Assembly (NCBI GenBank): GCA_016217555.1
Contig: JACRHW010000017.1
Location: 5,093 to 69,092 of the forward strand
Origin: Parcubacteria group bacterium
GTDB taxonomy: Bacteria > Patescibacteriota > Minisyncoccia > UBA6257 > JACRHW01
Direction: 5' to 3'
Length of the DNA: 64,000 bases
Shown here: piece after piece, positions 5,267 to 63,735 of the stretch
Layout of the letters: every line of letters begins with the position of its first letter
Numbering within the stretch: position 1 is the stretch's first letter
Notes under the pieces: generated by a model
The model's input: only the letters and a program-made list of their open reading frames with translations
What the model was told of the DNA's origin: nothing
The model's database searches: none
Translations under genes and position numbers: made by a program

Positions 5267-7744
5267 TTGTCTGAGAGTGATCTGAAATCAGAAGAGCGTG
5301 ATAATGAAGTACGAAAAGAAGGAGTTGTTTTTCAAGAAAAATTACGCGAACGAAATGAGTATGATGAAAAGCCTGATAGGGTTTTTGTTGTTTCTCGTGG
5401 CACGTTTGGGGAGTTTGAGGGGGCTATTACCAATCCAGAAGTATCATTGAAGGTTGGCGATCCAATCTTGTTAAAGAATCAAGAGGGAACAACGGTTGAT
5501 AGGCTAGTGACAGCGGAAGATGTTGAAAAACAACGCCTGATTAATAGCAATCGAGATTATCTTGGGGCTAAGGGTGGAGATCCTTTGCTTTGGGGCAGTG
5601 TTCAGGCTGAAGCCTGTAGTAAAAGAGCAGATGACATAAGCTCTAAATTATTAGAACTCCCTTCTTACAAAGGGGCTAATGCCAAGGAGCAAGTTGAATT
5701 AAGACAGATTTTTGGAGAGACTTCATCGCATATAGATAAGATGAAAGAGGACATGAAAGCTGAAAATGTTGAGAAGATGATTTCCGAGAAAATATTTTTT
5801 GGAAATGGGTCCGAAGAGGACGTTAAGAAATATAATTCTCTTCCGGAGGATCAAAAGAAGGCATTTAGAGAAGACAAGGTTAAGGATGTATTTTCTGGAA
5901 TAGCTGCGAAAGAAGTTGGAAAAATGAAACTTTCTGAAGAAGAGGCAATCCAAAAAATGGTAATAGAAGATATGGCAAAGCAGGGGAAGAATCCTACCAA
6001 AGAGGAGGTGTTGGATATTTTGAATGCTGGTGGTGGGGCTGGGAGGGTAGAGGCATTCGCTGAATTTAAGAGGAGGCAGCTGGAAGCAACAGAAAAAGAA
6101 AATATGTTTTGTGCGAATCAAGGAGATATTAAGGCGCTTGATCAGGCCCTCAAGGATTTAAATAATCCCGAGCTCAGTAAGGATAAAATTAAAGATGTTT
6201 TGCGCAAAATTAGTGGAAATTCTTTAAATGCTGCTGTTGATATTTCTTTCGCAAGGCAGGCAAAAAGAGATGGTTTTGATCGTGTATCAACTAAAGCTGC
6301 TGACCCGGAAATAATAGTACCACCAGTTGGTACGGATGGTACTTCTTCGTCGTGGATGCCGGGTGGGTATCCTGGAGAAAGGCATACTGTATCACCACTA
6401 CCACCCGAAGGGACACCGCCTCCATCATGGACTCCTGGTGGATATCCAGGAACTCGATATGATGTAAAGCCATTACCACCAGGAGGCCCAGGCCCTGGTC
6501 CGGATGGTCCTATTGGCCCAACGGGACCCGAAACCCCCCCCATTGGACCTCGTGGGCCAGAGAGAGTGGTATTTGTGCAGGATCTAAAAAATGAATACGA
6601 CCGATTGCGCGATGTATATATTATGGATCGTCGCGCAACGCGTGGAGCTGGTTTGGAGCGTGGAATTCTTGAGAGGGATAGAGCTGATATGGAACGCGCC
6701 AAGGAGGCGTATCTTGGTGCGCAGATGAGAGCTGCCATGGAGTCGGTGAGAAGCGCTACGGCAGGGATGGAGGGTGAGGAGGCCGCAAGGGCACAGACTG
6801 AGGCGCTTACAGCAATTGGACTTGATTTGAATACGCGACTTGATGCGCAATTCCTTCAAAGTGAACGCGAGCGTGAACCAAACGGATGGTATGCAAAATT
6901 TAATCGTTTTTGGATGAGTAAGGCGGGGAGTGCCGTGAAGGTGGTTGGTGGTGTTGGTTTAACCACAATCGGAGGATTCACGGGGTTGTTGCCGCTTGTT
7001 GGTCTTGGGACCACCATGGCTGCCTCTGGAATTGGGTGGGAGGCTGGTAAGGTTTGGAGCTTGGGAAGAAAAAACTGGGGAATGAATAAAATTAGGACGC
7101 CAGAAGAAATTGAACGCATGGCGCCAGAACAGGTAGATGTGGTGCTCAATTCTCAACGTGAACTTATGCGTAGGCAGGGTCGTGTGGATCCTGAACGCGT
7201 TGCTACGATACAAGCACTTGAGGCGCGACGTGATCAAATTCTACAAGAACGCATGAGGGAGCGTGTGCAACGCATGATTCTCGAGGAGGGCGGATTGTCG
7301 TCAGAGAATATCACACGAGCAACGACAGACGCGTTAAATCTTGAAAATGGTTCATTTCTAAGAACTGGTGAGGCGACAGATGAACGTGCTAGAGCTTGGG
7401 AGATACGAAGAAGGAAGATCGCTGGTATCGCGGGTGGTATAGGTGTCGGGCTTGCAAATTTGGCGGCTCAATGGGGTGCAGCCAGCGTCAATTTTGTAAA
7501 CGATGCGGCGACGCGTACTGCGATGAGAGCCGATTATAACAAGGATGGTGTTTGGAATTGGGTGAGAAATAATGGAAAAGAATATTGGGATACTGCGAGA
7601 CAAACATGGCATTCCACTGGTGGGACTGGTGGATTCTCTGGCGCAAAAGAAGTCATTCTCAATGTTCCAAATGAGGGCTTTGCATCATACTCATACCCTA
7701 GTCATCAATACCCGGCAGGATTCACCGAGGGTGTAACATTCTAA
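5267..7744 (+). CDS. Large hypothetical protein (825 aa) with a K/E-rich N-terminal half, a collagen-like Gly/Pro tract and one hydrophobic segment
   Basis: Long ORF with coding-like composition. Contains PGGYPGxRxxVxPLPP x2 and GPGPGPDGPIGPTGPETPPIGPRGPE. No recognisable catalytic motif. Confidence 0.5.
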   Translation: MSESDLKSEERDNEVRKEGVVFQEKLRERNEYDEKPDRVFVVSRGTFGEFEGAITNPEVSLKVGDPILLKNQEGTTVDRLVTAEDVEKQRLINSNRDYLGAKGGDPLLWGSVQAEACSKRADDISSKLLELPSYKGANAKEQVELRQIFGETSSHIDKMKEDMKAENVEKMISEKIFFGNGSEEDVKKYNSLPEDQKKAFREDKVKDVFSGIAAKEVGKMKLSEEEAIQKMVIEDMAKQGKNPTKEEVLDILNAGGGAGRVEAFAEFKRRQLEATEKENMFCANQGDIKALDQALKDLNNPELSKDKIKDVLRKISGNSLNAAVDISFARQAKRDGFDRVSTKAADPEIIVPPVGTDGTSSSWMPGGYPGERHTVSPLPPEGTPPPSWTPGGYPGTRYDVKPLPPGGPGPGPDGPIGPTGPETPPIGPRGPERVVFVQDLKNEYDRLRDVYIMDRRATRGAGLERGILERDRADMERAKEAYLGAQMRAAMESVRSATAGMEGEEAARAQTEALTAIGLDLNTRLDAQFLQSEREREPNGWYAKFNRFWMSKAGSAVKVVGGVGLTTIGGFTGLLPLVGLGTTMAASGIGWEAGKVWSLGRKNWGMNKIRTPEEIERMAPEQVDVVLNSQRELMRRQGRVDPERVATIQALEARRDQILQERMRERVQRMILEEGGLSSENITRATTDALNLENGSFLRTGEATDERARAWEIRRRKIAGIAGGIGVGLANLAAQWGAASVNFVNDAATRTAMRADYNKDGVWNWVRNNGKEYWDTARQTWHSTGGTGGFSGAKEVILNVPNEGFASYSYPSHQYPAGFTEGVTF

Positions 7745-18975: not shown

Positions 18976-19061
18976 TTTTCATTATAATGACCCCATGTAG
19001 ATGGGGCTTTGTTTTTTCTTTGGTTTTATGACATAGTTACAATAATATCTTGAATTAAGAA

Positions 19062-19204
19062 GTGTGTATTTCGAACCATTCCGCAGACGCGAAGCTGGGT
19101 GTTGTCAACCCCGAGTGGAAACGAGTTGGGTTGACAACGGAGCGTCTGCGGGTGGAGTGAGTCGCCGCGGGAGTGACGAACGCGTGAGAAACACACATTT
19201 CGTA
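19062..19204 (-). repeat. Structured about 140-170-nt repeat element, family C copy 1 (reverse orientation relative to copies 2 and 3)
   Basis: Its reverse complement aligns with 32616-32746 and 60190-60361. It has an outer stem CCGCAGACGC/GCGTCTGCGG and an inner stem GTTGTCAACCC/GGGTTGACAAC. Confidence 0.7.
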
Positions 19205-19296
19205 ATTCAAGGAATAATATGTCTTCGAGTATTTTTTTATTTATCGTATTCATCTCCCTATTTTATATAGGTGTTCTTTCAATTTTTATCTAAGAT

Positions 19297-21804
19297 ATGC
19301 AGAAATATAACCATGAAAAAATAGAGAAGAAGTGGCAGAAGGAGTGGGCGAATGATAATTTTGCTGCCTGGCGTGTAGAGGAGGGGGGTAAGAAAAAAAA
19401 GAAGTATGTTCTTGATATGTTTCCGTATCCTTCGGGGGATGGGTTGCATGTAGGACATATTGAGGGATATACCGCTTCCGACATTGTGAGTCGTTTTTCT
19501 CGGATGAGAGGATACAATGTACTTCACCCTATGGGATGGGATGCTTTTGGGTTGCCTACTGAAAATTATGCTATCAAACACAAGGTGCACCCTGCGAAGG
19601 TAACTGAAAAAAATGTTAATAATTTTCGCGCTCAGTTACAGCGTATGGGGTTTAGCTATGATTGGTCGCGTGAGGTAAATACTACAGACCCCGAATATTA
19701 TAAATGGACACAATGGATTTTTTTAGAACTTTTTAAACGCGGGCTTGCTTATGAGGCGGAGGTACCAGTCAACTGGTGTCCCAGCTGCAAAACAGTGCTT
19801 GCAAATGAGGAGGTGATTGATGGAACGTGTGATAGGTGCCACTCCGAAGTTATTCATAAAAATTTAAAACAATGGATTCTTAAAATTACTGCTTATGCAG
19901 ATAGGCTTCTTTCTGACCTTGATGATCTCGATTGGCCAGAACGTATTAAGGAGATGCAGAGGAATTGGATTGGAAAATCTTATGGGGCGCTTATAAAATT
20001 TCCTCTAGCGAATTTCAAATTTCCGCTTTCAGTTTTTACGACCAGACCCGATACGTTATTTGGTGTAACCTATGTGGTTCTTGCTCCAGAACACATACTC
20101 ATACAAGAGTTAAAAGATTATATTACGAATTGGGATGAGATCGTGGAATACGTAGGTGTAGCACGAAATAGGAGCGAACGTGAGCGGCAAGAGAAGAAGG
20201 AAAAAACAGGAATTGAACTTAGGGGTATAAGTGTTATCAATCCTGCAAATCAAAAAGAAGTTCCCGTGTGGATTGCTGACTATGTACTTATGGGGTATGG
20301 CACAGGGGCGGTAATGGCAGTACCCGCGCACGATGAGCGTGATTTTGCTTTTGCTAAGAAATATAGACTTCCTATAACAACGGTTATCCAGCCACTTTCT
20401 TATGAATGGGATGTTACGGTAGCGGCATACACCGACGAGGGGAGAATGGTTAATTCGGGAGAGTTTGACGGATTAGGTTCGGAAGAGGCGAAAAGGGCAA
20501 TTGTTGTAAAACTTCGGGAGCAAGGTTTCGCAGAAAATACGGTAAAATATAAACTTCGTGATTGGGTGTTCTCGAGACAAAGATATTGGGGAGAACCCAT
20601 TCCGCTTGTATTTTGTGAGGCGTGTGCGGAAAGAGTGAGAAAACAGAAAACAGAAAACAGAAAACAGAATGTGAACTTGGGAGAGATATTAAACCCCGGA
20701 TGGATGGCGGTGTCGGAGGGAGATTTGCCGGTTACCTTACCAAACGTAAAAAATTATGAGCCGACGGGAAACGCGGAGTCACCACTTGCTGGGATAACAA
20801 CATGGGTGAAAACGACATGTCCAAGGTGTGGAGGGGTTGCGCGACGGGAGACAAACACAATGCCACAGTGGGCGGGATCAAGCTGGTACTACCTCGCTTA
20901 CGTTATGCGAGGGAATTCAAAATTCAAAATTCAAAATTCAAAATTGTTTCAGTACTGGTTGCCTGTCGATATGTATATCGGGGGAGCAGAACATGCGGTG
21001 TTGCACCTTCTCTATGCGCGTTTTTGGCACAAGGTGTTGTATGATGCAAAAATCGTTTCTACCAAGGAGCCTTTTTATGCATTACGAAATCAGGGTCTTA
21101 TTCTTGGTCCCGATGGGGTAAAAATGTCTAAATCACGTGGAAATGTGATTAACCCCGATGCGGTGGTAAGGGAGTATGGTGCTGATACTCTTCGTATGTT
21201 CGAGATGTTCATGGGCCCACTTGAGGATTCAAAACCATGGGATATACGTAGTATTGTTGGCGTGCGAAGATTCTTAGAGAGGGTTTGGGGGTTACAAATA
21301 AAAATTAAAGATCAAAAATTAAAGATCAAAAATGACGGTGAAGACATAAGGAGACTTATGCATCGGACAATAAAGAAGGTGACGAAAGATATCGAGGAGA
21401 TGCGTTTTAATACTGCAATTTCTGCGCTTATGGTATATGTAAACGCGCTTGGAGGACAGGAGGATATTTCAAGGGAATCTTACACAACACTTCTTGTTTT
21501 GCTTGCGCCATTTGCCCCACATATCACTGAAGAATTGTGGCAATTGATGGAAAACAAAAATTCAATTCACTTTGAAAAATGGCCTATCTATGATCCGAAA
21601 CGTATCATAGAGGAGTATGGTATTCTTGTGGTACAGGTAAATGGGAAAACAAGAGATTCCATTGAGGTGGCAAAAGGTGTTTCTGAGGAAAATGCTTTGG
21701 AAATTGCCACCAAAAGGGATCGTATTGCTTTTTGCCTTAAGGGGAAAGAAATTATACGTGTGGTGTATGTGCAGAACAAACTTATCAATATTGTAGTAAA
21801 ATAA
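19297..21804 (+). CDS. leuS: Leucyl-tRNA synthetase
   Basis: HIGH motif (HVGHIEGY), KMSKS (VKMSKSRGN) and class-I LeuRS architecture. It contains in-frame tandem-repeat insertions. Confidence 0.92.
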   Translation: MQKYNHEKIEKKWQKEWANDNFAAWRVEEGGKKKKKYVLDMFPYPSGDGLHVGHIEGYTASDIVSRFSRMRGYNVLHPMGWDAFGLPTENYAIKHKVHPAKVTEKNVNNFRAQLQRMGFSYDWSREVNTTDPEYYKWTQWIFLELFKRGLAYEAEVPVNWCPSCKTVLANEEVIDGTCDRCHSEVIHKNLKQWILKITAYADRLLSDLDDLDWPERIKEMQRNWIGKSYGALIKFPLANFKFPLSVFTTRPDTLFGVTYVVLAPEHILIQELKDYITNWDEIVEYVGVARNRSERERQEKKEKTGIELRGISVINPANQKEVPVWIADYVLMGYGTGAVMAVPAHDERDFAFAKKYRLPITTVIQPLSYEWDVTVAAYTDEGRMVNSGEFDGLGSEEAKRAIVVKLREQGFAENTVKYKLRDWVFSRQRYWGEPIPLVFCEACAERVRKQKTENRKQNVNLGEILNPGWMAVSEGDLPVTLPNVKNYEPTGNAESPLAGITTWVKTTCPRCGGVARRETNTMPQWAGSSWYYLAYVMRGNSKFKIQNSKLFQYWLPVDMYIGGAEHAVLHLLYARFWHKVLYDAKIVSTKEPFYALRNQGLILGPDGVKMSKSRGNVINPDAVVREYGADTLRMFEMFMGPLEDSKPWDIRSIVGVRRFLERVWGLQIKIKDQKLKIKNDGEDIRRLMHRTIKKVTKDIEEMRFNTAISALMVYVNALGGQEDISRESYTTLLVLLAPFAPHITEELWQLMENKNSIHFEKWPIYDPKRIIEEYGILVVQVNGKTRDSIEVAKGVSEENALEIATKRDRIAFCLKGKEIIRVVYVQNKLINIVVK

Positions 21805-23543: not shown

Positions 23544-23682
23544 AGCGCTGTTCGGTAACCTCATACGTATTAGTGCCTGAGCTTGTCGAAGGCCCACCTT
23601 TCTCTAAGGAAACCCTTCGACTTCCTTCGACAAGCTCAAGACAAGTCGCTCGGGGAATACCATGTTTCCGAACAGCGTCGCT
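23544..23682. repeat. Composite palindromic repeat with AGCGCTGTTCGGTAAC terminal inverted repeats (family E, copy 1)
   Basis: Ends are AGCGCTGTTCGGTAACCTCA ... TTTCCGAACAGCG. The interior is CCTGAGCTTGTCGAAGG / CCTTCGACAAGCTCAAG hairpins. Confidence 0.6.
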
Positions 23683-26891: not shown

Positions 26892-27004
26892 GGCGCTGTT
26901 TTGAAACACAATATTCCCTGAGCGAAGTCGAAGGGTTTCCTTAGAGAAAGGCAGGCCTTCGACAAGCTCAGGCACTAGTAATTATGAGGTTACCGAACAG
27001 TGCC
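26892..27004. repeat. Family E composite palindromic repeat, copy 2 (reverse orientation, internally deleted)
   Basis: GGCGCTGTT ... CCTGAGCGAAGTCGAAGGGTTTCCTTAGAGAAAGGCAGGCCTTCGACAAGCTCAGGCAC ... GGTTACCGAACAGTGCC. The interior is the reverse complement of the copy-1 interior. Confidence 0.6.
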
Positions 27005-31885: not shown

Positions 31886-31921
31886 CTTGTATTTAGTATA
31901 TCGTATCTTGTATAGTGTATG
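31886..31921. repeat. Family D repeat fragment (copy 2)
   Basis: CCTTGTATTTAGTATATCGTATCTTGTATAGTGTATG. Confidence 0.4.
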
Positions 31922-31954
31922 AATCCGCCGCAGGCGGATTATATCAGATACTAT

Positions 31955-32524
31955 ATGTTAACTATCAACGATCTTGAACCAAAATTAGTTGTGTCAATCG
32001 AGGGTGATCCCTATCAAATTCTCGAGGTGTCTCATCAGCACATTGGTCGCGGAGGATCAAACGTGCAGACGCGCATTAAAAACTTGAGAACAGGTGCTGT
32101 TTTGAGTAGAAATTTTAAACCTGCCGATAAATTCGAAGAGGTAGAAGTAGAGAAAAAACCAGTGAAGTTTTTGTATATGAATAAGGGGGAGTACTGGTTT
32201 TGTGAGGAGGATAAGCCTGCCAACCGATTTACCTTAGCGTCGGAGGCGTTGGGGGAGAGTGCTATTTTTTTAAAACCGAATACTCCAGTCGAGGCCATTA
32301 TGGCGGACGAGAAGCTTCTTAACATTGAACTTCCTGTCAAGATGGATCTTAAGGTTGTTGAAGCTCCACCAAGTATCCGTGGCAATACTGCTCAGGGGGG
32401 GACAAAAATCGTAAAACTCGAAACAGGGGCCGAGGTAGCCGTACCTCTTTTTATCAACGAGGGAGACACTGTGCGTGTAAATACGCAAACGAAACTCTAC
32501 GTAGAAAGAGTCGAGAAATTCTAA
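31955..32524 (+). CDS. efp: Elongation factor P
   Basis: Start MLTINDLEPK; contains QHIGRGGSNVQTRIKNLRTG (loop region with the conserved K/R). The track start at 31919 lies in a palindromic repeat. Confidence 0.85.
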   Translation: MLTINDLEPKLVVSIEGDPYQILEVSHQHIGRGGSNVQTRIKNLRTGAVLSRNFKPADKFEEVEVEKKPVKFLYMNKGEYWFCEEDKPANRFTLASEALGESAIFLKPNTPVEAIMADEKLLNIELPVKMDLKVVEAPPSIRGNTAQGGTKIVKLETGAEVAVPLFINEGDTVRVNTQTKLYVERVEKF

Positions 32525-32525
32525 T

Positions 32526-32600
32526 ATTCCTTGAGCGAGGTCGAAGGGCTATTATACTTGTTTGTCATTCCCGCGCAGGCGGGAATCCAGTGTAAATAAA
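32526..32600. repeat. Fragment of palindromic repeat modules (GTCGAAGGG... plus the GTCATTCCCGCGCAGGCGGGAATCCAG hairpin)
   Basis: ATTCCCGC-GCAG-GCGGGAAT is a perfect hairpin, related to the family E interiors. Confidence 0.5.
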
Positions 32601-32615
32601 TCGCATCCTATATAT

Positions 32616-32746
32616 TTCTCACCCATTCGCCACTCCAGCGTGCGGCTCACTCATCCACAGACGCTTCGTTGTCAACCCAACTCATTCTGATTCGGAGTTG
32701 ACAACACCCTGCTCCGCGTCTGCGGAATGGTTCGAAATACATGTGT
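32616..32746 (+). repeat. Family C structured element, copy 2
   Basis: CTCACTCATCCACAGACGCTTCGTTGTCAACCC ... GGAGTTGACAACACCCTGCTCCGCGTCTGCGGAATGGTTCGAAATAC. Confidence 0.7.
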
Positions 32747-32805
32747 TGTGATTCAGAAAATTTTATACGTATCAGCTCACAAGACTGAGTGGAAAAATAA
32801 GATAG

Positions 32806-32866
32806 TGCCTGAGCTTGTCGAAGGCCTACCATAAGGAAACCCTTCGACTTCGCTCAGGGACTATAG
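32806..32866. repeat. CCTGAGCTTGTCGAAGG / CCTTCGACTTCGCTCAGG hairpin module (family E interior type)
   Basis: GTGCCTGAGCTTGTCGAAGGCCTACCATAAGGAAACCCTTCGACTTCGCTCAGGGAC. Confidence 0.5.
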
Positions 32867-37141: not shown

Positions 37142-39754
37142 ATGTTTGCCCCATTTAATCGTTTTACATTGAAGGCTCAGGAGGCGATTCAGGCGGCGCA
37201 GGATCTTGCTCTTGAGCGGAATAATGCTGAGCTTAAATCACTCCATCTTTTGGTTGCCCTCCTTGATCAGGAGGAGTCTTTGGTATTTGTTGGGCTTGCA
37301 AAGTTGGGGGTAAATTTGAATTCATTGCGTGCCGCAGTTGAAGTCGAACTCAATCGCCTTCCTCGCGTCGCAGGAGGTGCGCAAAAGGCCCAGCTTTATA
37401 TTTCACAGGAGATGATGCAGATCCTCGAGATTGCGTCTCGAGAGGCGGCTAAAATGAAAGATGAGTTTATCTCGTGTGAACATCTCTTTCTTGGTGTGCT
37501 TGAGGTCGCATCAAGGAGTCGTGAGGTGTTGAAGAATTTTGGAATAAATTATGCAGAGTTTGTAAAAACCCTCCTTGATGTAAGGGGGGGTATGCAGGTG
37601 AACGACGAAACACCAGAGACGAAGTTTAAGACACTTGAAAAATACGCAATCAATCTTACTCAGCTTGCGCGTGAGGGGAAACTTGATCCCACTATTGGGA
37701 GGGACAATGAGCTGAGGCGATTAATACAAATTCTTTCGCGCAGGACAAAGAACAATCCTATTTTAATTGGTGAGCCAGGGGTGGGAAAGACGGCGATTGT
37801 TGAGGGGTTAGCGCAGCGCATTATATCGCAGGATGTACCTGATTTGCTTCAGGGAAAGGAGGTGATTTCACTTGATCTGGGGGCGCTTATTGCTGGTACT
37901 AAGTTTAGAGGTGAGTTTGAGGACCGTCTGAAGGCGTTTATCAAAGAACTTCAAAAGCAGCAGGGGAGGTACATTCTTTTTATCGATGAAATTCATATGA
38001 TTGTAGGGGCTGGTGCTGCAGAGGGGGCGGTTGATGCAGCAAATCTATTAAAATCTCCCCTTGCACGAGGAGAGCTACGTGCCATTGGAGCGACAACGCT
38101 CAAGGAGTATCAGCGACATATCGAGAAAGATGCGGCGCTCGAGCGTAGATTTCAACCTATTCTTGTGGAGGAGCCAAGTATCGAGGATAGTATCGCTATC
38201 CTCCGCGGTCTTAAAATTAAATATGAAATGCATCATGGTGTCAAAATTTCTGATGGTGCTATTGTCGCGGCGGTAAATTTAGGAAGTCGTTATATTTCTA
38301 ATCGCTTTTTGCCCGACAAGGCGGTTGATCTTATAGACGAAGCTTCATCAAGTGTAAAGATTGAGATGGGGTCTATGCCAGTAGAACTTGAGAAGGGTTC
38401 TCGCCTTATTACTCGGCTCGAGATAGAAAAAGAATCGCTTAAGAAAGAGTTGTCGATGGTAAGTAAGAAGCGTCTTCACGAGATAGAGATCGAGCTTACA
38501 AAACTCCATGGAGAAAAGGATGGCTTGATGGGGCAATGGAAAAGCGAAAAAGATGCAATAGAAAAGGTGAACGTATTGCACCGCTCTATTGACGAATTTA
38601 AGCAAGATGCCGAGCGCTACGAACGGGAGGGTGATCTTGAAAAGGTTGCCGAGCTTGTGTATGGAAAAATTCCGCATGCAGAGAAAACACTGACGAATCT
38701 CGAAAGAAAAACAGCAAAAGCACAGCAAAGTTTCCAATTTGTAAAGGAAAAAGTTACCGAGGAGGAGATCGCAAAGGTGGTTTCGCGATGGACGGGCATC
38801 CCTGTTCACAAAATGCTTGAGGGCGAATCTGAAAAACTAAGAACGATGGAGGAGGTGCTGCATAGGCGGGTGGTGGGGCAGGAGGAGGCGGTTACCGCCG
38901 TTTCCCGGGCTATTAAGAGAAGTCGTCTTGGACTTTCTGACGAAAATAAACCGATCGGCTCCTTCTTGTTTTTGGGGCCTACAGGAGTGGGAAAGACAGA
39001 GCTTGCAAAAACGCTTGCTGATTTTATGTTTAATGATGAAAATGCAATTATTCGTCTTGATATGTCTGAGTATATGGAACAGCATTCTATTGCGAAGCTT
39101 ATCGGTTCTCCTCCGGGATATGTCGGATATGATGAGGCGGGGCAACTTACTGAAATCGTAAAACACAGGCCATACTCTCTTATTCTTTTTGATGAAATCG
39201 AAAAGGCACATCCCGAGGTCTTTCATATTCTTCTTCAGGTTCTCGATAATGGGCGCCTTACCGATTCGAAAGGGAGAATGGTGAATTTCAAGAATACGAT
39301 TATTATTATGACCTCAAATATTGGAGGGGAGTTTATCCAGGAGGGAAATCTTGGATTTGCAATGGGAGATAGGTCGGTGGGAGAGGTAAATACCAAAATT
39401 AGAATTCAAGATGCGCTTAAGGGCTATTTCCGCCCCGAATTTCTTAATAGAATCGACGAAATTGTGATTTTTAATGCTTTGCGTGAAGAGGATTTGGAAA
39501 AAATTATTGATCTACAATTAACACAAGTGAGAGAGCGTCTTGCTAAAAAGAATATCGTTTTAAAGATAGACGAAAAAGCACGGAAATATCTTGTCGAGCA
39601 TGGCTATGATCGCGATTTTGGAGCGCGCCCCCTGAAGCGTCTTATACAAAAGCTTGTCGTAGATGCTGTTGCTCAAAAGCTTATTTCCGGAGAACTTAAG
39701 GAGGGCAGGGTGAATGTATCGATGAGGGGACAGGAACTTGTCTTTAGCCGGTAA
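37142..39754 (+). CDS. clpB: ATP-dependent chaperone ClpB
   Basis: Two AAA+ modules (GEPGVGKT and GPTGVGKT), a long coiled-coil M-domain between them and a Clp N-domain. 870 aa. Confidence 0.9.
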
Positions 39755-39964: not shown

Positions 39965-40747
39965 ATGAAATTTCTTAGACGATATTACAATGAGCTTTTT
40001 TCTTTGTGCGTTTTTTCCCCCCTGGTGATACTTGGGATGCGGTCTGGTGTGGTTGGGGGGATAGGTATTGCGGGTTTTCTTACGTTTTTTGCGGCAATAA
40101 TATTCCGGAATAACTATATTACCGCTTTTTCCGTGTTGTTGCTCATACCCTTTTTGGTATTTGGAGATGTGAGTTCTTTTTTTGGAATCGGACCGACAGC
40201 CTTCGGCTCCCTTATTTCTTTAGTATTTTACCTCTTTTGTTCCTCTTTTTTACACAAAAAAAATTGGATATGGATGTGGTATATTCCGGTATGGCTTTTT
40301 GGTTTTGAGCTCTTAGGTAGTATTTCGTTTGATATATTGAAAGATAGTACTATTTTTGTTGCATTTTTCAGTCTCACACACCTTTTTCTTGCTTTATCTG
40401 TTCCGCGAATCCGTCAGCCGGCGGAGGGAATCCAGAAAACATCGATGTTACCACTGGATCCCCACCTTCGTGGGGATGACACCATTACTGTGGATAAGCC
40501 CGTCCTACTTCGTTTTTTTGCTTTTCTTTTTTCCACACTTTTGTTTGAGCTTTTTTGGGTCATACGGGTACTTCCTTTAGGAGTTTTTTTGGGTTCTCTG
40601 TTTATTGTGGTTTTCTTTTATTTCATTACCCACCTCTATCGTGGTTATATTTTAGAAAAGCCCATTCAGTATTATATTCGTCCTAGCGCGTTTACTTTTC
40701 TTTTATTGCTTGCTATCCTGATAACTGCAATTAAAACTCCTTTTTAA
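39965..40747 (+). CDS. Hypothetical polytopic membrane protein with an in-frame palindromic-repeat insertion
   Basis: About 8 TM helices. A hydrophilic loop ...RIRQPAEGIQKTSMLPLDPHLRGDDTIT... is encoded by GGGAATCCAG ... CTGGATCCCCACCTTCGTGGGGATGACA, a repeat module also present intergenically at 63640-63705. Confidence 0.45.
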   Translation: MKFLRRYYNELFSLCVFSPLVILGMRSGVVGGIGIAGFLTFFAAIIFRNNYITAFSVLLLIPFLVFGDVSSFFGIGPTAFGSLISLVFYLFCSSFLHKKNWIWMWYIPVWLFGFELLGSISFDILKDSTIFVAFFSLTHLFLALSVPRIRQPAEGIQKTSMLPLDPHLRGDDTITVDKPVLLRFFAFLFSTLLFELFWVIRVLPLGVFLGSLFIVVFFYFITHLYRGYILEKPIQYYIRPSAFTFLLLLAILITAIKTPF

Positions 40748-40751
40748 TAGT

Positions 40752-42728
40752 ATGCGTACACTTGTAAAAATCTTTCTTTTTCTTTCTATTTTTTCTTTAA
40801 TAATTTTTTCTACCGATTTATTTTTTCCCTATATTACGGGTAAGATTTTTGCATTTCGTTTTTTCATTGAATTTGCTTTTATCGCATGGATTCTTGATCT
40901 TTTTTTGCGAAAAACGTTACGGTTCCGTTTTTCCGAGCCAATAGTGAAGGCTCTTCTCATTTTTTCCGGCTCCCTAATTGTTTCTGCCTTTTTTGGAGTA
41001 AATCCTTCGTTTAGTTTTTGGTCTGATTTTGAACGTAGCGAGGGACTATTCTCCTTTTTTCATTATCTCGCGTTCTTTATTATGCTTCTTGATGTGTTTG
41101 TCATGGATGATTACTATCGTTTAATTAAAGCATTTCTTATTATTTCTCCTTTTATTGCCTATTATCAGTTTTCTAATTATGTAAATATTGAAAAACATGC
41201 TTTTGGAAGAATTAATGGACTTCTTGGAAATCCTTCCTATGTGGCAACATTTCTTCTTTTTGTTTTTGGTCTTGGTTTTTATCTTGTTCTTAAAAATAGA
41301 GAACTGTTTCGCTCAACAAAAGACGTCTTTGTGTTGTTTGAGAACTGGCTTTGGTGTTTAATTTTATTGATTGACATTCCTGCCTTTTTCTTTACACAAA
41401 CACGTGGAGCATATGTGGGCGTTTTTGTGGCATTGGTTGTTTATCTTATTATGCTTGGGCGATATGGGGTGGCAAAGGAAAAAAAGATGGCCCGGTACAG
41501 TCTTCTTTTTCTGAGCATTTTTATCGTTTTGGGCAGTGTGCTTATCTTAAAAACAAATGTACTCCCATCGAATTTAAAAGATCCGGGAAGTTTGGTTTCT
41601 CGTTTTTCTACATGGAAGGCCGCTTTGCGTGGATTTCTTGATCGTCCTTTGCTCGGATATGGTCCCGAAAATTTTAACATTGCTTTTGATAGACACTATG
41701 ACCCAGTCCATTCGGGACTAGAGACGTGGTTTGATCATGCACACAATCTTCCCGTTGAGCTTCTTGCGGTGACAGGCGTTGTCGGTTTTCTTGCGTATTT
41801 ATATATTTTTTATATTTTTTTTCGCTATTACTTCTCGATTATCCTTAAAAAACGTCCTATCTATGAAGCGGCTCTTTTCCTTGCAATCCCTGTAGCATAT
41901 TTCATTCAAAATCTTGCCCTATTTGATTCTCTTACCTCTTATGTTTTATTTTTTACATTTCTCGCCTTGGCACGCACCATCGTACTAAGGGAAACCAATA
42001 CATATAGTACCAATATAGTGTATTTTGGACGACCATTATTTATTGGGTTGTGTTGCATCATTCTTTTTTTTGCCCCCCTTTTTGGGATATATTCAAACAT
42101 ATTTGCACTACAAAAAAACATGCGCCTTCTCGCCACATTTTTACCACCACAACAATCGTTTTCTCCGAGCGCAAAAGTAAATGTATATAAGCAACTGTTT
42201 GATTTGCCGGGTTTTGTGGGGAGACGTGAGATTTCTACCGCTCTTGCAAAAGATATATTCGATTGGTCTTCTTCTCGTAATCTTAGTAAGTTTTCCAGAG
42301 AAGATTTTGATGCTTTGAATGAAGGAATAAATATGAGTGAAGAATATCTAACACATGACCCTTCTCATATTCGCAATTATTATTTGTTGGGATATGCTTA
42401 TTCATCAATTGGGGGTTATTTTAAAGACAGAAAGGCTCTGATTCGCGGAGAGGATATCCTCAAAAGAGCAGATAAGTTGAGTCCTGGTAGAATAGAATTT
42501 CTTGAAGTTCTGATTAAAAATCTTGGCGCGCAGAAGAAATATGACGAAGCTCTTAAGTATTCTTTAGAAATTATACGATTGCGCCCCGATATGGAGGCGG
42601 GTCACCGATTCGCCGGAGTCTTTTATCAAAAGATAGGAGAGACAAAGAAGGGGAAAGAAGAGCTTGGCAAAGCATTATTGATTAATCCATCTTCAACCGC
42701 ATCCATATTTTTAGAAGAGAACAAGTAG
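40752..42728 (+). CDS. O-antigen-ligase-like (Wzy_C) membrane protein with C-terminal TPR repeats, paralogue 1
   Basis: TQTRGAYVGVF ... WFDHAHNLPVELL is a Wzy_C/O-antigen ligase signature. The C-terminal 200 aa are TPR-like. 658 aa. Confidence 0.55.
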   Translation: MRTLVKIFLFLSIFSLIIFSTDLFFPYITGKIFAFRFFIEFAFIAWILDLFLRKTLRFRFSEPIVKALLIFSGSLIVSAFFGVNPSFSFWSDFERSEGLFSFFHYLAFFIMLLDVFVMDDYYRLIKAFLIISPFIAYYQFSNYVNIEKHAFGRINGLLGNPSYVATFLLFVFGLGFYLVLKNRELFRSTKDVFVLFENWLWCLILLIDIPAFFFTQTRGAYVGVFVALVVYLIMLGRYGVAKEKKMARYSLLFLSIFIVLGSVLILKTNVLPSNLKDPGSLVSRFSTWKAALRGFLDRPLLGYGPENFNIAFDRHYDPVHSGLETWFDHAHNLPVELLAVTGVVGFLAYLYIFYIFFRYYFSIILKKRPIYEAALFLAIPVAYFIQNLALFDSLTSYVLFFTFLALARTIVLRETNTYSTNIVYFGRPLFIGLCCIILFFAPLFGIYSNIFALQKNMRLLATFLPPQQSFSPSAKVNVYKQLFDLPGFVGRREISTALAKDIFDWSSSRNLSKFSREDFDALNEGINMSEEYLTHDPSHIRNYYLLGYAYSSIGGYFKDRKALIRGEDILKRADKLSPGRIEFLEVLIKNLGAQKKYDEALKYSLEIIRLRPDMEAGHRFAGVFYQKIGETKKGKEELGKALLINPSSTASIFLEENK

Positions 42729-42776: not shown

Positions 42777-44753
42777 ATGCGTGTTCTTGTAAAAATCTTT
42801 CTTTTTCTTTCTATTTTTTCTTTAACGTTTTTTTTAGCTGACTATTATTTCCCCTATATTGTCAGCAAGGTATTTCCTTTTCGATTGTTTATCGAGCTTG
42901 CGACAATCTCGTGGCTCATCAATCTCTATTGGTTTCGTATAATACGTTTTAAGTTTTCTGAACCTATTGTAAAGGCTGTTCTTGTTTTTTCTGGGGCACT
43001 TCTTGCCTCCACTCTTTTTGGGGTGAACCCACTCTTTAGTTTTTGGTCTAATTTTGAACGGAGCGAGGGGCTTTTTTCTTTCTTGCATTATTTAGCATTT
43101 TTCATCCTCCTCATTGATGTATTTTCTGAAGATGACTACTATCGTCTTATTAAGTTTCTTCTTCTCCTCTCCCCGCTTATTTCTTATTATGGGTTTTCGA
43201 GTTTTCGGGATGCTAATACTTATCAGTATGGAAGAGTGTTTGGGGTTTTTGGAAATCCCTCATACCTTGCGGCATTTCTTATTTTTGTGTTTGGGTTTGG
43301 TGTGTTGTTGATTTTGAGAAATATAGAATTTGCTAAAGTTTTGAAGGATCCCTTGTTGATTGTCGAAAATATACTTTGGATAGTTCTTTTGTTGGGAGAT
43401 GTTCCAGCATTCATTCTTACACAGACAAGAGGTGCTTACATTGGACTTTTGGTTGGCGTGCTTGTTTTTCTTATCTTTCTTTTGCGGCAGGGAAAGGGGG
43501 TTCAGAAAAAATATGCTGTCGGAGGTCTCATTGTACTTCTTTCTCTTGTTGCGCTTGCGGGGTTTGTCATTTTAAAAACCAAAATAGCTCCGGCGAATCT
43601 TAAGGATCCATCCACACTTGTCTTTCGTTTTGCTACGTGGGGTTCAGCATGGAAATCATTTCTCGACCATCCTCTTTTCGGGTATGGTATGGAAAATTTT
43701 TCAGTTGGATTTGATAAGCACTATAACCCAATCCATTCGGGTGTTGAAGTCTGGTTTGATCACGCCCACAGTGTGATATTTGATGCACTTGCAAGCACGG
43801 GTCTCTTGGGACTTATTTCCTATATTGCTATTTTTGTAGTACTATTTCGTTTCTATCTTCCCGTGATCACAAAACGACGCCCGGTGTTGGAGGCTGGTGT
43901 ATTCTTTGCCCTTCCTATTGCATATTTTGTCCAAAACCTTGTTTTGTTTGATACCCTTTCTTCCTATATCCTTTTCTTTCTCTTTCTTGGTGTGGTGCGT
44001 TCAGTGTTTTTGAAGGAGACAAGCAAGAATAAAGAGAAAACTTTTTTTGCGGCACACCCCATACTACTAAGTTTTGTAGTGGTGATGCTTGTTATTGCTG
44101 TAGTTTTTGGTATTTATGCGAACTTTGTTGCTTATCAAAAAAATAGGGAGTTAAGGACCGCCTACACTCTTTCTCGCCAATCCCAACTTCCTCGTGGAGT
44201 GGAGGAGTATCGAGGATTACTTGATATGCCAGGATATTTAGGAAGAAGGGAGGTGATTAAGGATTTTGCCGCTTATTTGTATGAGTGGTCCGCAAAATCT
44301 GATTTGCGGTCTCTTTCCAAAGAGGATGGTGGTGCCCTGGGTGGGGGCTTGAGGACAGTAAACGATTTTCTTGACAAGGAAGATCCTCAATACCTTAATG
44401 GATATTATCTTTTTGCGAATACCTATAACGTGATTGCATTTAAATTGGGTGATGCTACCGTGTTTCAAAAGACGGAATCTACCCTAAAAGAAATGAATAC
44501 AAAGAGCCCAAATCGCATAGAAATAATCAATTTGCTTGCAGATAATCTTATTGCACAGAGAAAGTATGACGAGGCGCTTAGTTATGCGCTTCAAATTACA
44601 ACACTGCGTCCTGACATGGAGGTGGGGCATAGGCTTGTTGGGTTTGTATACAATAAGATAGGGAGGCGTGACGAAGCTAAAAAAAAGGGGGAGGAGGCTT
44701 TACGTATCAATCCAAGCTCTACCGCCGCAGAATATCTTAAAAAAATACGTTAA
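42777..44753 (+). CDS. O-antigen-ligase-like (Wzy_C) plus TPR membrane protein, paralogue 2
   Basis: Same length (658 aa) and architecture; TQTRGAYIGLLVG ... WFDHAHSVIFDAL. The 5' 50 nt are nearly identical to paralogue 1. Confidence 0.55.
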   Translation: MRVLVKIFLFLSIFSLTFFLADYYFPYIVSKVFPFRLFIELATISWLINLYWFRIIRFKFSEPIVKAVLVFSGALLASTLFGVNPLFSFWSNFERSEGLFSFLHYLAFFILLIDVFSEDDYYRLIKFLLLLSPLISYYGFSSFRDANTYQYGRVFGVFGNPSYLAAFLIFVFGFGVLLILRNIEFAKVLKDPLLIVENILWIVLLLGDVPAFILTQTRGAYIGLLVGVLVFLIFLLRQGKGVQKKYAVGGLIVLLSLVALAGFVILKTKIAPANLKDPSTLVFRFATWGSAWKSFLDHPLFGYGMENFSVGFDKHYNPIHSGVEVWFDHAHSVIFDALASTGLLGLISYIAIFVVLFRFYLPVITKRRPVLEAGVFFALPIAYFVQNLVLFDTLSSYILFFLFLGVVRSVFLKETSKNKEKTFFAAHPILLSFVVVMLVIAVVFGIYANFVAYQKNRELRTAYTLSRQSQLPRGVEEYRGLLDMPGYLGRREVIKDFAAYLYEWSAKSDLRSLSKEDGGALGGGLRTVNDFLDKEDPQYLNGYYLFANTYNVIAFKLGDATVFQKTESTLKEMNTKSPNRIEIINLLADNLIAQRKYDEALSYALQITTLRPDMEVGHRLVGFVYNKIGRRDEAKKKGEEALRINPSSTAAEYLKKIR

Positions 44754-44791
44754 TTATAGTATTGCCTGAGCTTGTCGAAGGCTTACCATTT

Positions 44792-45556: not shown

Positions 45557-46088
45557 TCTGTAACGTAATTTCTTATCGATTCGTTATAATTAACAAGGAA
45601 CACAGTGTTTTTTATTAGTTTTCCACAGTGAGATCTATTGCAAGGGGGTTGCTTTTTTTGCTAAAATAGAGTATACTAAGCAGGACTCAAGGAATGTAGG
45701 AAAACACTAGGTTTTTTCGCCAAACGGGCGGGCTTTTAGGGAGCGTTTTTCTTTTCACACCTGTTTTATCGCAATGTTGTGATACAATAGGTGTGAAAAG
45801 AAAAGGGACGTAACGATTGCAGTAGATAGACAGGAGGTGATGGACTGTTATTTGAAAACTGAATAAGGGCTAGATAAAAAATGGTAGCGCCTGAGCTTGT
45901 CGAAGGCTTACCAAATTAATTCTTTTTTTCTCGATGTAATGAGTCGTAATCAAGGTCGGTGATTCGTTTAACACGAATCATGCTCTCGGCTCTTCTAGAA
46001 ATGTGTATGTAAACAAATAATTAAGCGATTTGTTTTGTGGCGTCGAACCACAAAGGAATCGCGTAACAAAAATTAAATACAAAAAATT

Positions 46089-54063: not shown

Positions 54064-54134
54064 GGGGCTATAGTTCAATGGTAGAATGTTGGTCTCCAAA
54101 ACCAATGATCAAGGTTCGAATCCTTGTGGCCCCG
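54064..54134 (+). tRNA. tRNA-Trp (anticodon CCA)
   Basis: GGGGCTA...TGGCCCC-G acceptor stem, anticodon loop CTCCAAA and T-loop GGTTCGAATCC. Confidence 0.85.
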
Positions 54135-54307
54135 CAGTGAACGAAGTGAGCAAGGGGCCAAGCACGCCAACTGCTTGGCGTGCGTCAAGGATTCGAAAGC
54201 CGGAGCATGTCCCGAGTTTGTTGAGGGACGCGAGGCGGGGTCGACGGGCTTCCGAAGGAAGAACCGGTGACCGCATCTTTGTGGCGACTGAGTATATAAA
54301 AAATATT

Positions 54308-54868
54308 ATGGATGAAATACAGCAGAGAAATATAATCCTCTACGGAGTTCCCGGTTCTGGTAAAACATCTCTTGGGCAGGCGCTAAGTGAAGAGCTAAAA
54401 CTTTTTTATATAGAGGCGGATGAAATAAGAAAAATTGGTAAACAAAATCGGTCTTTAGAAACCGATCCGTTTTTCTTTTTGCCTACCACAGAAGCGTATC
54501 AGGCTATTGGAGAATGTACTGGTGAAAATATAATAAAAGGGTTGTTTGGTGTGCGCGGTGCTTATAGGGATTTGGTTCATCGAGAGGTTATTTCGCATGA
54601 AGAACCATGTATTATTGAGGCTGCTTTCCTTGATCCCATCTTCTTAAAAAACGAGGGGTTAGAAATATTGGTTGTTGTATCTTCGGAGGAAAAACATCGA
54701 CAGCAGTTTTTTACACATCGCACAGAAGATGCTCTCACCGAGAGGCAGTTTAAGAACGCAAGAATTATTCAAGATTTTTTAATCAGGGAAGCAGGGCAAG
54801 TAGATACCACTATTCTCGAAAATGACGGTGATATAAAATCCTTGGTTGAAAAATTAAAAAAGTTGTGA
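54308..54868 (+). CDS. Hypothetical P-loop NTPase/kinase-like protein
   Basis: Walker A ILYGVPGSGKTS; about 186 aa. The track ORF extends upstream over the tRNA and is not believed. Confidence 0.4.
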   Translation: MDEIQQRNIILYGVPGSGKTSLGQALSEELKLFYIEADEIRKIGKQNRSLETDPFFFLPTTEAYQAIGECTGENIIKGLFGVRGAYRDLVHREVISHEEPCIIEAAFLDPIFLKNEGLEILVVVSSEEKHRQQFFTHRTEDALTERQFKNARIIQDFLIREAGQVDTTILENDGDIKSLVEKLKKL

Positions 54869-60189: not shown

Positions 60190-60361
60190 TTACGAAACCT
60201 CTCTTCCTCACACGTTCGGATACCTAGCGGTATCCTCACTCATCCGCAAGCGCTTCGTTGTCAACCCAACTCTCCGCCATCCGCCAACTGGCTGAGGCGG
60301 ATCGGGGTTGACAACACCCTGCTTCTCACTTGCGGAATGGTTTGGAAGAGATGTTTCGTAA
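60190..60361 (+). repeat. Family C structured element, copy 3 (full length, with 19-bp TIRs TTACGAAACCTCTCTTCC / GGAAGAGATGTTTCGTAA)
   Basis: The core CTCACTCATCCGCAAGCGCTTCGTTGTCAACCC...GGGGTTGACAACACCCTGCTTCTCACTTGCGGAATGGTTTGG is shared with copies 1 and 2. The loop carries an extra CCGCC/GGCGG hairpin. Confidence 0.7.
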
Positions 60362-60471
60362 GTCATCACTATAAAAGTACAATATACTTTTTAAGTCAAG
60401 TTCACTAATTATATAAAAGAGGTACACTGGGGCTAGTTACTTTGAAAAAAGAAAAAGGGAGTGTGACTGTC

Positions 60472-62713: not shown

Positions 62714-63568
62714 ATGCGACTAGATAGTTTTGAGAGTAAGTTAAAGAGTTTGGGAGAAAATCCTGAAAAAAGTTTGTTGATGGAGATCGCTTCTGATATT
62801 GGAGATGAATTACCTCGAAATAGGTGGGAAGTAGTACGAGAGGCGAGGTCTTTAATGGCGGCGTGTAGGGAGCATCTTGGTGATAGTGAGGAGGCATGGC
62901 TTGCTAGGGGATATTTGATGGCGTTGTGTAATGTATGTGCTTCTTTTGAGGCTTATGAAAGAGATCAAAAAGTGATTAAGACATACAAGCCGATTCTCTT
63001 CGTCGATTTTGACGGCACCTTGTGCCACGACAGATTTTGGAGGAGCATGCCTCCAAACGAGCAGAATGCAATTCAGAAATGGCTATTTCAGGAAAACAAA
63101 GATTTGGTTCGCATGTGGATGGTTGGTGGTTGTACAAGCGAAGAGATAAATCATTGTATTGCTGATCAGCTCAACATTCCTTTTGAGAGACTTTGGGAGG
63201 TGTTTGTGCGAGATTGTAAAAGTATGGTTGTCTCTTCTTCTGTTCTCGAAAATCTTGTACTACTGAGGTCACGATTTGAGCTCGTACTCCTTACTGATAA
63301 TATGGATTGTTTTACCCGGTTTGCAGTACCAGCCCTTAATTTGTGGAAGTATTTTGATAGGATTATAAATTCGTATAACGAAAGGATGTCAAAACGAGAA
63401 CTACTTCTTTGTCTTATTCCCGAGTCTTTAAGAAAATTAAGTATCATCATCGATGATTCCCACGGTATATGTGAGTTATTTGAACAATTGGGTGGCGTAT
63501 CTTGTTTGGTTACAGCTGGACAAGACATCGATTATCATATCGACATATTATTGCGTAGGGATAGGTAA
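62714..63568 (+). CDS. Hypothetical HAD-like protein
   Basis: ILFVDFDGTLC (DxDGT motif I). Confidence 0.35.
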   Translation: MRLDSFESKLKSLGENPEKSLLMEIASDIGDELPRNRWEVVREARSLMAACREHLGDSEEAWLARGYLMALCNVCASFEAYERDQKVIKTYKPILFVDFDGTLCHDRFWRSMPPNEQNAIQKWLFQENKDLVRMWMVGGCTSEEINHCIADQLNIPFERLWEVFVRDCKSMVVSSSVLENLVLLRSRFELVLLTDNMDCFTRFAVPALNLWKYFDRIINSYNERMSKRELLLCLIPESLRKLSIIIDDSHGICELFEQLGGVSCLVTAGQDIDYHIDILLRRDR

Positions 63569-63613: not shown

Positions 63614-63735
63614 TAGCGCTGTTCGATAACCTCGCATTTGTCATTCCCGCGTAGGCGAGAATCCAGGTTTTTTCATACTCTGGATCCCCGGGTCAAGCCC
63701 GAGGATGACAGAATTGTGGAGTTATCAAACAGCGC
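63614..63735. repeat. Family E composite palindromic repeat, copy 3 (same TIRs, different interior hairpins)
   Basis: Ends AGCGCTGTTCGATAACCTC ... GTTATCAAACAGCGCC. Interior GTCATTCCCGCGTAGGCGAGAATCCAGG and CTGGATCCCCGGGTCAAGCCCGAGGATGACA. Confidence 0.6.

Follow-up and report, generated by a model that had tools for sequence, protein, structure and literature searches.

The stretch of DNA analysed here, in the following called the window, comprises 64,000 nucleotides from a Parcubacteria group bacterium (contig JACRHW010000017.1, positions 5,093 to 69,092 of the forward strand), and the element in question lies inside one of its open reading frames (ORFs), the gene of a membrane protein at 39965-40747. 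Very probably, a dimer of repetitive extragenic palindromic (REP) units of the type known as CGTC-1, dRS3, NTS or RPE-6 (Rickettsia palindromic element 6) inserted into this gene and is tolerated there in a loop of the protein. One partner of the dimer is an intact member of the repeat family and the other one has decayed. The same dimer also sits in frame in real genes of other genomes.

The inserted element and its family

The extent of the inserted segment (Table 1) follows from the comparison of the host protein with its homologues. A search covering 5.8 billion proteins gave the identical protein, from a Parcubacteria group bacterium metagenome-assembled genome (MAG) at NCBI (HZA35_02995) and from one Logan assembly, and only two relatives, P0002 and P0003, which are 234 aa long each and share 53% and 49% identity with the host protein. 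Because the gene order ClpB - host gene - Wzy_C ligase is common to the contigs of both relatives (L001-L003), they are orthologues. Since the host protein, P0002 and P0003 are about equally distant from each other in all pairs, a profile search for more distant homologues was made among 1.84 billion cluster representatives, which added three proteins (P0004-P0006) with 24-31% identity. A Pfam search of the 260-aa protein matched no family.

The orthologue alignment contains one gap of exactly 26 columns opposite residues 147-172 of the host protein, and these 26 residues are missing at the same position from five of five homologues, that is from the two syntenic orthologues as well as from P0004-P0006. 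The composition changes at the same place: the GC content is 59% in the 78-nt insert versus 36% in the remaining coding sequence (CDS), with local peaks of 51-54% around the insert and values of 31-40% elsewhere in the gene. Since all five homologues are without the segment and the composition jumps there, the 26 residues are an insertion gained in this lineage. The boundary of the inserted segment is uncertain by a few bases, and the 9 nt at 40403-40411, upstream of the left partner of the dimer, also count as extra DNA. A nucleotide alignment of filled against empty sites was abandoned, as the orthologues were too divergent and MAFFT misplaced the gap, and the protein alignment was used instead.

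Within the insert, the right partner consists of a tag, a stem, a loop and a tail, and its perfect hairpin ATCCCCAC-CTTC-GTGGGGAT spans 40458-40477. There are about ten GC-containing perfect hairpins of at least 8 bp in the 64 kb, mostly intergenic, and this is one of them. At its 3' side, the left partner keeps the 10-mer GGGAATCCAG, of which an exact copy is present at 32581-32590. This 10-mer occupies the position and orientation expected of a dimer partner, and its pairing counterpart in the right partner is CTGGATCCCC. The tags of the in-gene dimer point outward, which is the head-to-head (HH) arrangement, and the distance between the partners compares with spacers of 8-30 nt in dimers of other genomes, a range that is itself set by the pattern N{8,30} used for their retrieval. 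The fold energy is unremarkable, with z = -1.2 for the in-gene stretch and z = -1.7 for the intergenic copy, so that stability singles out neither of the two.

Membership in the repeat family was assessed in two ways. The skeleton GAATCCAG-N(8-30)-CTGGATYCCC-N(6-18)-GRATGAC has exactly two matches in the window, at 40428-40480 and 63659-63709, while 0.00 are expected from shuffled sequences. This pattern was derived from the same two copies, and therefore an independent covariance model (R1) was built exclusively from other genomes, using 44 distinct 28-nt left-arm units of which the retrieval pattern constrains the last 8 bases only. The 8-bp stem covaries across the 44 units (98% of the cells paired; 23 double-sided changes versus 3.8 in shuffles). 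When R1 was run over the whole window without filters, it found four significant units (Table 1), among them the right partner of the in-gene dimer, which scored second best. This unit keeps all 8 pairs and differs from the consensus by two double-sided changes, U-A to C-G and G-C to A-U. The tail CCAG is common to all four good units, and the start TGTC is shared by 40454-40481 (minus strand) and the units at 32563 and 63639. The unit at 32563-32590 is intergenic, 39 nt past a stop codon, and the intergenic head-to-head dimer lies 71 nt downstream of a gene. Within the approximately 66 kb that are readable, the family is present as the dimer at 63639-63710, the single unit at 32563 and the in-gene dimer. 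A blastn-short comparison within the window yielded exact matches of only 10 nt plus a single 29-nt match at 83%, none of which is significant by itself, and was replaced by R1. Rfam has no family at any of the repeats of the window.

A scan of GTDB (one genome per species) with the skeleton pattern matched at least 120 loci. Among the matches listed, there are Alpha-, Beta-, Gamma- and Deltaproteobacteria, Nitrospirota, Planctomycetota, Chloroflexota, Armatimonadota, Gemmatimonadota and Verrucomicrobiota as well as the Candidate Phyla Radiation (CPR), the latter with loci from Roizmanbacteria (L050), Parcubacteria (L055) and Patescibacteria (L064). The 172 matches listed display a stereotyped element of the form (C/T)GTCATTCCCGCGAAAGCGGGAATCCAG, spacer, CTGGAT(T/C)CCCGC...GCGGG(A/G)ATGAC(G/A). 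The dimer also occurs in tandem arrays in an Azospirillaceae MAG and in one further genome; four copies with a period of 124 nt are present at L069:2589-3022, and four copies lie within 1 kb at L090:110-1128.

Of 133 distinct foreign dimers among the matches listed, 24 lie in a frame that is free of stop codons and extends for 50 codons or more on either side, several of these frames being spurious ORFs of GC-rich genomes. From conserved motifs, we take the genes that carry the dimer to include those of TruB (L008), IleS (L015) and UvrA (L105), and further carriers are presumably a radical-SAM enzyme (L040), a large membrane protein (L047) and a lytic-transglycosylase-like protein (L026). The ileS gene of the isolate Sphingopyxis indica MC4, annotated as such in RefSeq, contains the dimer. 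The leucyl-tRNA synthetase LeuS of Parcubacteria GW2011_GWB1_42_6 (L055:1023-3800, minus strand) is 48% identical to the LeuS of the window (19297-21801) according to BLAST and alignment, and in comparison with the latter it possesses three in-frame, GC-rich, palindrome-derived inserts, namely CHCEESEGRRSNPVGNDNNSGSPRPDGARDDGG, SSERAKQSRSDAANREIASSQAPRNDD and a dimer translated as SVIPAQAGIQ...LDPRFHGDD. The inserts CHCEESEGRRSNPVGNDNNSGSPRPDGARDDGG and SSERAKQSRSDAANREIASSQAPRNDD appear to derive from other hairpin families.

The original prediction, which had been made from the letters of the window alone, placed a palindromic module at 40415-40505 and ascribed to it the two-hairpin architecture of an intergenic repeat at 63640-63705. 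The strings that it quoted do exist, with GAATCCGTCAGCC...GGGGATGACA lying at 40407-40481, and the intergenic element is real as well, its coordinates being 63639-63710. Both copies belong to one family according to the skeleton and R1, but in the gene only the right hairpin is intact while the left one is degenerate. The perfect 8-bp stem, which has a 4-nt loop, and the hydrophilic translation RIRQPAEGIQKTSMLPLDPHLRGDDTIT in the frame of the 260-aa ORF were read correctly, whereas the loop, given as 27 aa, measures 26 aa in the homologue alignment. The orthologue comparison that had been proposed as a check gave the anticipated result, and the proposed search for further in-frame copies succeeded in other genomes only: a second in-gene copy in the window was found neither with the pattern of the Ssn-related motifs (see below) or R1 nor among GC spikes and perfect hairpins.

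Table 1. Positions of the inserted element, its relatives and further repeats in the window (REP, repetitive extragenic palindromic; R1, covariance model built from other genomes)
Feature	Position	Strand	Description
Host gene	39965..40747	+	ORF, 260 aa, multi-helix membrane protein, very hydrophobic
Inserted segment	40403..40480	+	78 nt = 26 codons, translated as PRIRQPAEGIQKTSMLPLDPHLRGDD, aa 147-172
Left partner, degenerate	40412..40435	+	CGTCAGCCGGCGGAGGGAATCCAG; own stem lost, CGTCA tag region kept
Spacer between the partners	40436..40453	+	18 nt, AAAACATCGATGTTACCA
Right partner, intact 28-nt REP unit	40454..40481	-	TGTC-ATCCCCAC-GAAG-GTGGGGAT-CCAG (tag, 8-bp stem, 4-nt loop, tail); R1 40.5 bits, E = 4.8e-10
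Single REP unit	32563-32590	+	R1 48.7 bits, E = 1.3e-12
Intergenic dimer, first unit	63639-63666	+	R1 37.1 bits, E = 5.6e-09
Intergenic dimer, second unit	63680-63710	-	R1 19.1 bits, E = 0.0023
Hairpins of a second family	32803-32830, 44757-44790, 45885-45912, 32530-32547, 32841-32858		
Approx. 170-nt element, copy 1	19025-19205	-	One long imperfect stem; the three copies are approx. 76% identical
Approx. 170-nt element, copy 2	32600-32780	+	As above
Approx. 170-nt element, copy 3	60190-60385	+	As above

Relation to known repeats and possible mobilisation

CGTC-tagged REPs were described by Di Nocera, De Gregorio & Rocco (2013, BMC Genomics 14:522; PMC3733652). In that description, CGTC-1 units have a CGTC or TGTC (or CCTC) tag, an 8-bp stem that starts with AT and thus opens with the pairs A-T and T-A, a 4-nt loop and a CCA tail, and they occur mainly as head-to-head dimers with the tags pointing outward. 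The unit at 40454-40481 exhibits such a tag, an 8-bp stem starting with AT, the 4-nt loop GAAG and the CCA tail. Judged by its sequence, the in-gene element is a CGTC-1/NTS-type REP head-to-head dimer. It resembles the published CGTC-1 repeats in the outward tags; spacers are given as 20-100 bp there versus 18 nt here, and most of the known copies lie just downstream of genes. It differs from the CGTC-1 copies presented in PMC3733652 in that it resides in the gene of a small membrane protein, has one decayed partner and carries the stem variant CCCCAC/GTGGGG. The 2013 account equates CGTC-1 with dRS3 of Neisseria and with RPE-6 of Rickettsia conorii, and RPE-4 with CGTC-4, but predates Ssn. 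It further reports that some dimers lie wholly inside ORFs and encode 20-30 residues, for instance in uvrA, truB and tRNA synthetase genes, and it presents the CGTC repeats as elements without a dedicated transposase and without a known association with RAYT.

A second description comes from Neisseria. According to Chenal et al. (2025, Nat Commun 16:2388; PMC11893778), the 28-nt NTS CGTCATTCCCGCGMAVGCGGGAATCYRG contains the dRS3 repeat, and relatives of it in many bacteria constitute the Ssn-related motifs (SRM). As reported there, SsnA, a single-domain GIY-YIG nuclease (cd10448), binds the motif as a hairpin of single-stranded DNA (ssDNA) and cuts the adjacent DNA. The ssnA gene is often flanked by the motif, and the layout NTS-ssnA-NTS is likened to an insertion sequence. 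In this paper, hairpin binding and cutting are documented for the Neisseria and Wolbachia homologues only and the role in transformation for Neisseria only, and its main text discusses neither Patescibacteria nor in-frame intragenic copies. The unit at 32563-32590 matches the NTS consensus CGTCATTCCCGCGMAVGCGGGAATCYRG at 27 of 28 positions. The search pattern for SRMs (HGTCWYN(0-2)YYVSBRHN(0-5)WNVSBRGN(0-2)RNCYNB) has matches in the window at 32563 (+), 63639 (+) and 63680 (-), so that both units of the intergenic dimer fit it. The likeness to the NTS/SRM system of PMC11893778 lies in the hairpin with oriented flanks and in these three units. The differences are that the arms of the in-gene copy fall outside the strict pattern and that no ssn gene was found on this contig.

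The original prediction had compared the in-frame insertion with Rickettsia palindromic elements (RPEs), and this comparison holds up well. In both cases, selfish palindromic DNA sits in frame in coding genes that are unrelated, is translated as an extra hydrophilic segment and leaves the ORF alive; here, it is an in-frame palindromic insert of 26 aa that five homologues are missing. RPEs were reportedly introduced by Ogata et al. in 2000 and 2002. They were defined in Rickettsia, an obligate intracellular alphaproteobacterium, whereas the host in the present case is a free-living or episymbiotic CPR bacterium, and the classic RPE-1 is longer (about 100-150 bp). With regard to RPE-6, the relation is closer than an analogy: the in-gene element is related to it, a statement that rests on the equation of CGTC-1 with RPE-6 made in PMC3733652. 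A further basis of this link is a Rickettsia parkeri primer, which contains AAAGCGGGAATCCAG.

GTAG-tagged REPs and REPINs as well as bacterial and Neisseria mosaic elements (BIMEs and NIMEs) likewise consist of short tagged hairpins, which are mostly arranged as inverted dimers and which combine with other small intergenic repeats into mosaics. REPs and REPINs differ from the present element in the GTAG tag and in their partner RAYT, a tyrosine transposase similar to those of IS200/IS605.

In the explanation that we propose, a non-autonomous CGTC-1-type REP head-to-head dimer inserted into the loop-coding part of the membrane-protein gene, and since 78 nt are a multiple of three and the frame is stop-free, the ORF stayed open and the loop was enlarged. 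The units would be recognised as ssDNA hairpins and cut beside the tag by a nuclease of the Ssn type with a GIY-YIG domain, a step that is taken from the literature only. Such a nuclease, or another enzyme acting in trans, would account for the spread of the units. Mobilisation by Ssn-type enzymes via ssDNA hairpins is thus the best available hypothesis, adopted from published work. At L107, a small GIY-YIG gene (5928-6221; Pfam E = 2e-16) adjoins a dimer at 6246-6307, which fits the published association of Ssn with its motif. Phages as the main vehicle find no support, as the dimer pattern occurs in only 9 IMG/VR contigs.

Frame compatibility and alternative explanations

The insert is read in the host frame that gives VIPAKAGIQ...LDSRFRGND in canonical copies (...AGIQ...LD(S/P)R(L/F)RG(N/D)D). 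A special design of the element for compatibility with ORFs was considered and rejected. The 105 complete foreign dimers among the matches listed are spread evenly over the three length classes modulo 3 (34, 34 and 37), and 47% of their frames are stop-free, which does not exceed the 55% obtained for segments drawn at random from these loci. Since 16% of the possible combinations of element, orientation and phase keep the host ORF open for these 105 dimers, no special design is needed. The in-frame copies presumably represent the approximately one sixth of insertions that purifying selection leaves.

The insert is located at the start of a short hydrophilic loop, D-N-N-H-K-K-A-T-M-P-H in the orthologue, that connects two hydrophobic helices and is thereby lengthened from about 11 to about 37 residues. 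The hydropathy minimum of the host protein is found at residues 148-178, and the insert is its most hydrophilic stretch. In an AlphaFold model, with a predicted local distance difference test (pLDDT) value of 51, residues 146-177 are mostly coil with one 3-residue helical turn, between the helices 122-145 and 178-202; as a query for a fold search the model was dropped because this value is too low. Apart from the insert, the ORF is intact over 234 aligned residues and all conserved motifs are kept. The insertion is probably tolerated through its placement in the hydrophilic loop.

Several observations weigh against the insertion of a mobile dimer as we propose it. The left partner alone reaches only 9.2 bits with R1 (E = 3) and is not significant. 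The strict SRM pattern matches neither arm of the in-gene copy, the right arm, which R1 accepts, failing solely through its variant stem. A target-site duplication or a clean boundary of the element is unreadable, as the nearest empty sites share only about 50% protein identity. Two regular expressions and a tblastn search with the Ssn-like protein of L107 revealed no Ssn or GIY-YIG gene in the window and the contig extension of about 2 kb (L124/L125), that is in approximately 66 kb, and only one of the 120 foreign loci listed (L107) has an Ssn-like gene beside the dimer. Finally, the genome is a MAG, and the two assemblies that contain the gene were probably built from the same reads.

Some of these points would fit the entry of a single REP, or of REP-containing DNA, by recombination, template switching or uptake of foreign DNA instead of a transposition as a unit, in which case the left partner would be filler. 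Besides the left half that is not significant alone, another 9-10 bases of additional DNA lie upstream of this half, neither a transposase gene nor an Ssn gene is found in the vicinity, and the family was in 2013 described without a dedicated transposase (PMC3733652). However, GGGAATCCAG occurs exactly, 18 nt away from the intact unit, in head-to-head orientation and spacing, and pairs with CTGGATCCCC as in the dimers of other genomes, and according to PMC3733652 both the family as a whole and its copies inside genes occur mainly as dimers. We therefore regard this kind of entry as unlikely. With respect to MITEs (miniature transposable elements with inverted repeats), inverted arms are present in the insert, no related insertion sequence was seen in the window, and the empty sites are too divergent for a target-site duplication to be read.

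It is also improbable, to a slightly higher degree, that the insertion is real but killed the gene, so that the ORF is open by chance and the gene is a young pseudogene. The open frame by itself proves little, given that about 16% of random dimer insertions preserve it, the host protein family is tiny and has no assigned function, and the left partner has already changed. On the other hand, the rest of the ORF is intact with its conserved motifs, the site of insertion coincides exactly with the short hydrophilic loop that separates two helices, and the left hairpin has decayed without a frameshift, which is in line with a continued selection on the frame. Moreover, the same repeat family is found in frame in the essential genes leuS and ileS, which cannot be dead.

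An artefact of the assembly, either a chimeric join or a spurious fill from a repeat shared by many genomes of the sample, is very improbable. The repeat is multi-copy and crosses phyla, the genome is a MAG, and an independent assembly breaks at the intergenic dimer. But both flanks of the insert belong to the same orthologous gene and the same frame with exactly 78 extra bases in between, and neither the frame nor the homology further downstream would be regained in a chimera. In the Logan assembly of SRR12113407, a contig of 904 nt carries the gene for the identical 260-aa protein with the insert in its middle. Since the same gene is thus present on one contig made by a second assembler, a chimeric join is unlikely, and because the CCCCAC/GTGGGG stem differs from the other copies on the contig, the insert was not copied from them. 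The break in the independent assembly concerns contig L124, which ends about 140 nt after the gene 62714-63568, at about position 63708 of the window and hence inside the intergenic REP dimer, as a repeat with multiple copies in the sample would lead one to expect. That the resemblance is coincidental and the loop is old, functional and lost in the other lineages is hardly credible. The host protein family has only six known members, and its three closest ones are separated by about equal distances. Yet the loop is missing from all five homologues, including the three distant ones, with the same gap position, its GC content is 59% in a gene of 36%, R1 from other genomes yields E = 4.8e-10, and the translated peptide agrees with the stereotyped ...GIQ...LDPxxRGDD known from canonical copies. 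The insertion of a dimer of the CGTC-1 type into the gene is the explanation that we prefer.

Neighbouring genes, other repeats and significance

The upstream neighbour of the host gene encodes ClpB (37142-39754). Directly downstream of it, there are two tandem paralogues similar to O-antigen ligases with Wzy_C and TPR domains (40752-42728 and 42777-44753), each encoding a membrane protein of 658 aa, whose DNA sequences are about 70% identical to each other.

The window contains a number of other repeats. An outer inverted repeat made up of GCGCTGTTCGATAACCTC and its complement (63616-63633 and 63718-63735) encloses the intergenic dimer at 63639-63710. The motif GCGCTGTTCGATAACCTC also flanks another module of paired hairpins (CCTGAGCTTGTCGAAGG and CCCTTCGACTTCGCTCAGGG) at 23545-23640 and 26911-27003. 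Since this outer motif is shared by different modules, the intergenic repeats form mosaics like NIMEs and BIMEs. A second family of short GC-rich hairpins (GCCTGAGCTTGTCGAAGGC, CCTGAGCGAAGTCGAAGG; CCTGAGC...GAAGG) has at least seven copies, all of them intergenic or at nominal ORF edges.

The element of approximately 170 nt contains a GTTGTCAACCC/GGGTTGACAAC core; among its 50 predicted pairs, 12 show double-sided changes, and the loop of one copy contains an insert of 21 nt. It has no match in Rfam and could be a MITE or a structured RNA. Directly after a tRNA (54064-54134) and inside the nominal ORF 54086-54868, the stretch 54117-54290 reaches up to 72% GC and forms nested hairpins, and Rfam gave nothing above noise for it. 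At 31922-31940, the first codons of the ORF 31919-32524 overlap with a perfect 8-bp hairpin (AATCCGCC-GCA-GGCGGATT), which is possibly a structure of the translation start or a chance match.

In-frame intragenic dimers of this family were already reported in 2013 (PMC3733652), and the present result is in this respect confirmatory and not surprising. New in comparison with that account are the host group, i.e. the CPR, and the host gene. The five phyla named there for the CGTC repeats do not include the CPR, so the known host range of the CGTC/NTS repeat family is extended to it. The finding also links the literatures on RPEs, CGTC-tagged REPs and NTS/Ssn. In the literature that we searched, no paper joins Rickettsia palindromic elements with GIY-YIG nucleases, and the work on RPEs and the Ssn paper of 2025 appear unconnected.

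For the annotation of CPR proteins, the result means that stretches of the type ...AGIQ...LDPxxRGDD are repeat-derived loops and not conserved domains, and that they mark sites of a fold at which insertions are tolerated. If nucleases of the Ssn type mobilise the hairpins, the in-gene copies would be natural records of insertion and useful for understanding the mechanism.

We put forward, tentatively and as a rather doubtful idea, that CGTC-1/NTS-type dimers are currently mobile in CPR genomes, that these genomes may lack an Ssn of their own and that the units are perhaps the result of a recent transfer across phyla. A cross-phylum transfer might be reflected in the fact that a unit matching the Neisseria consensus at 27 of 28 positions is found in a Parcubacteria genome with 41% GC. 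If this is true, the repeats would have been transferred, for example from host bacteria to their episymbionts, rather than inherited from ancient times, and in-frame insertions in CPR genes, such as the one in the membrane protein and the three in a single LeuS, would continually supply very small genomes with new protein loops.

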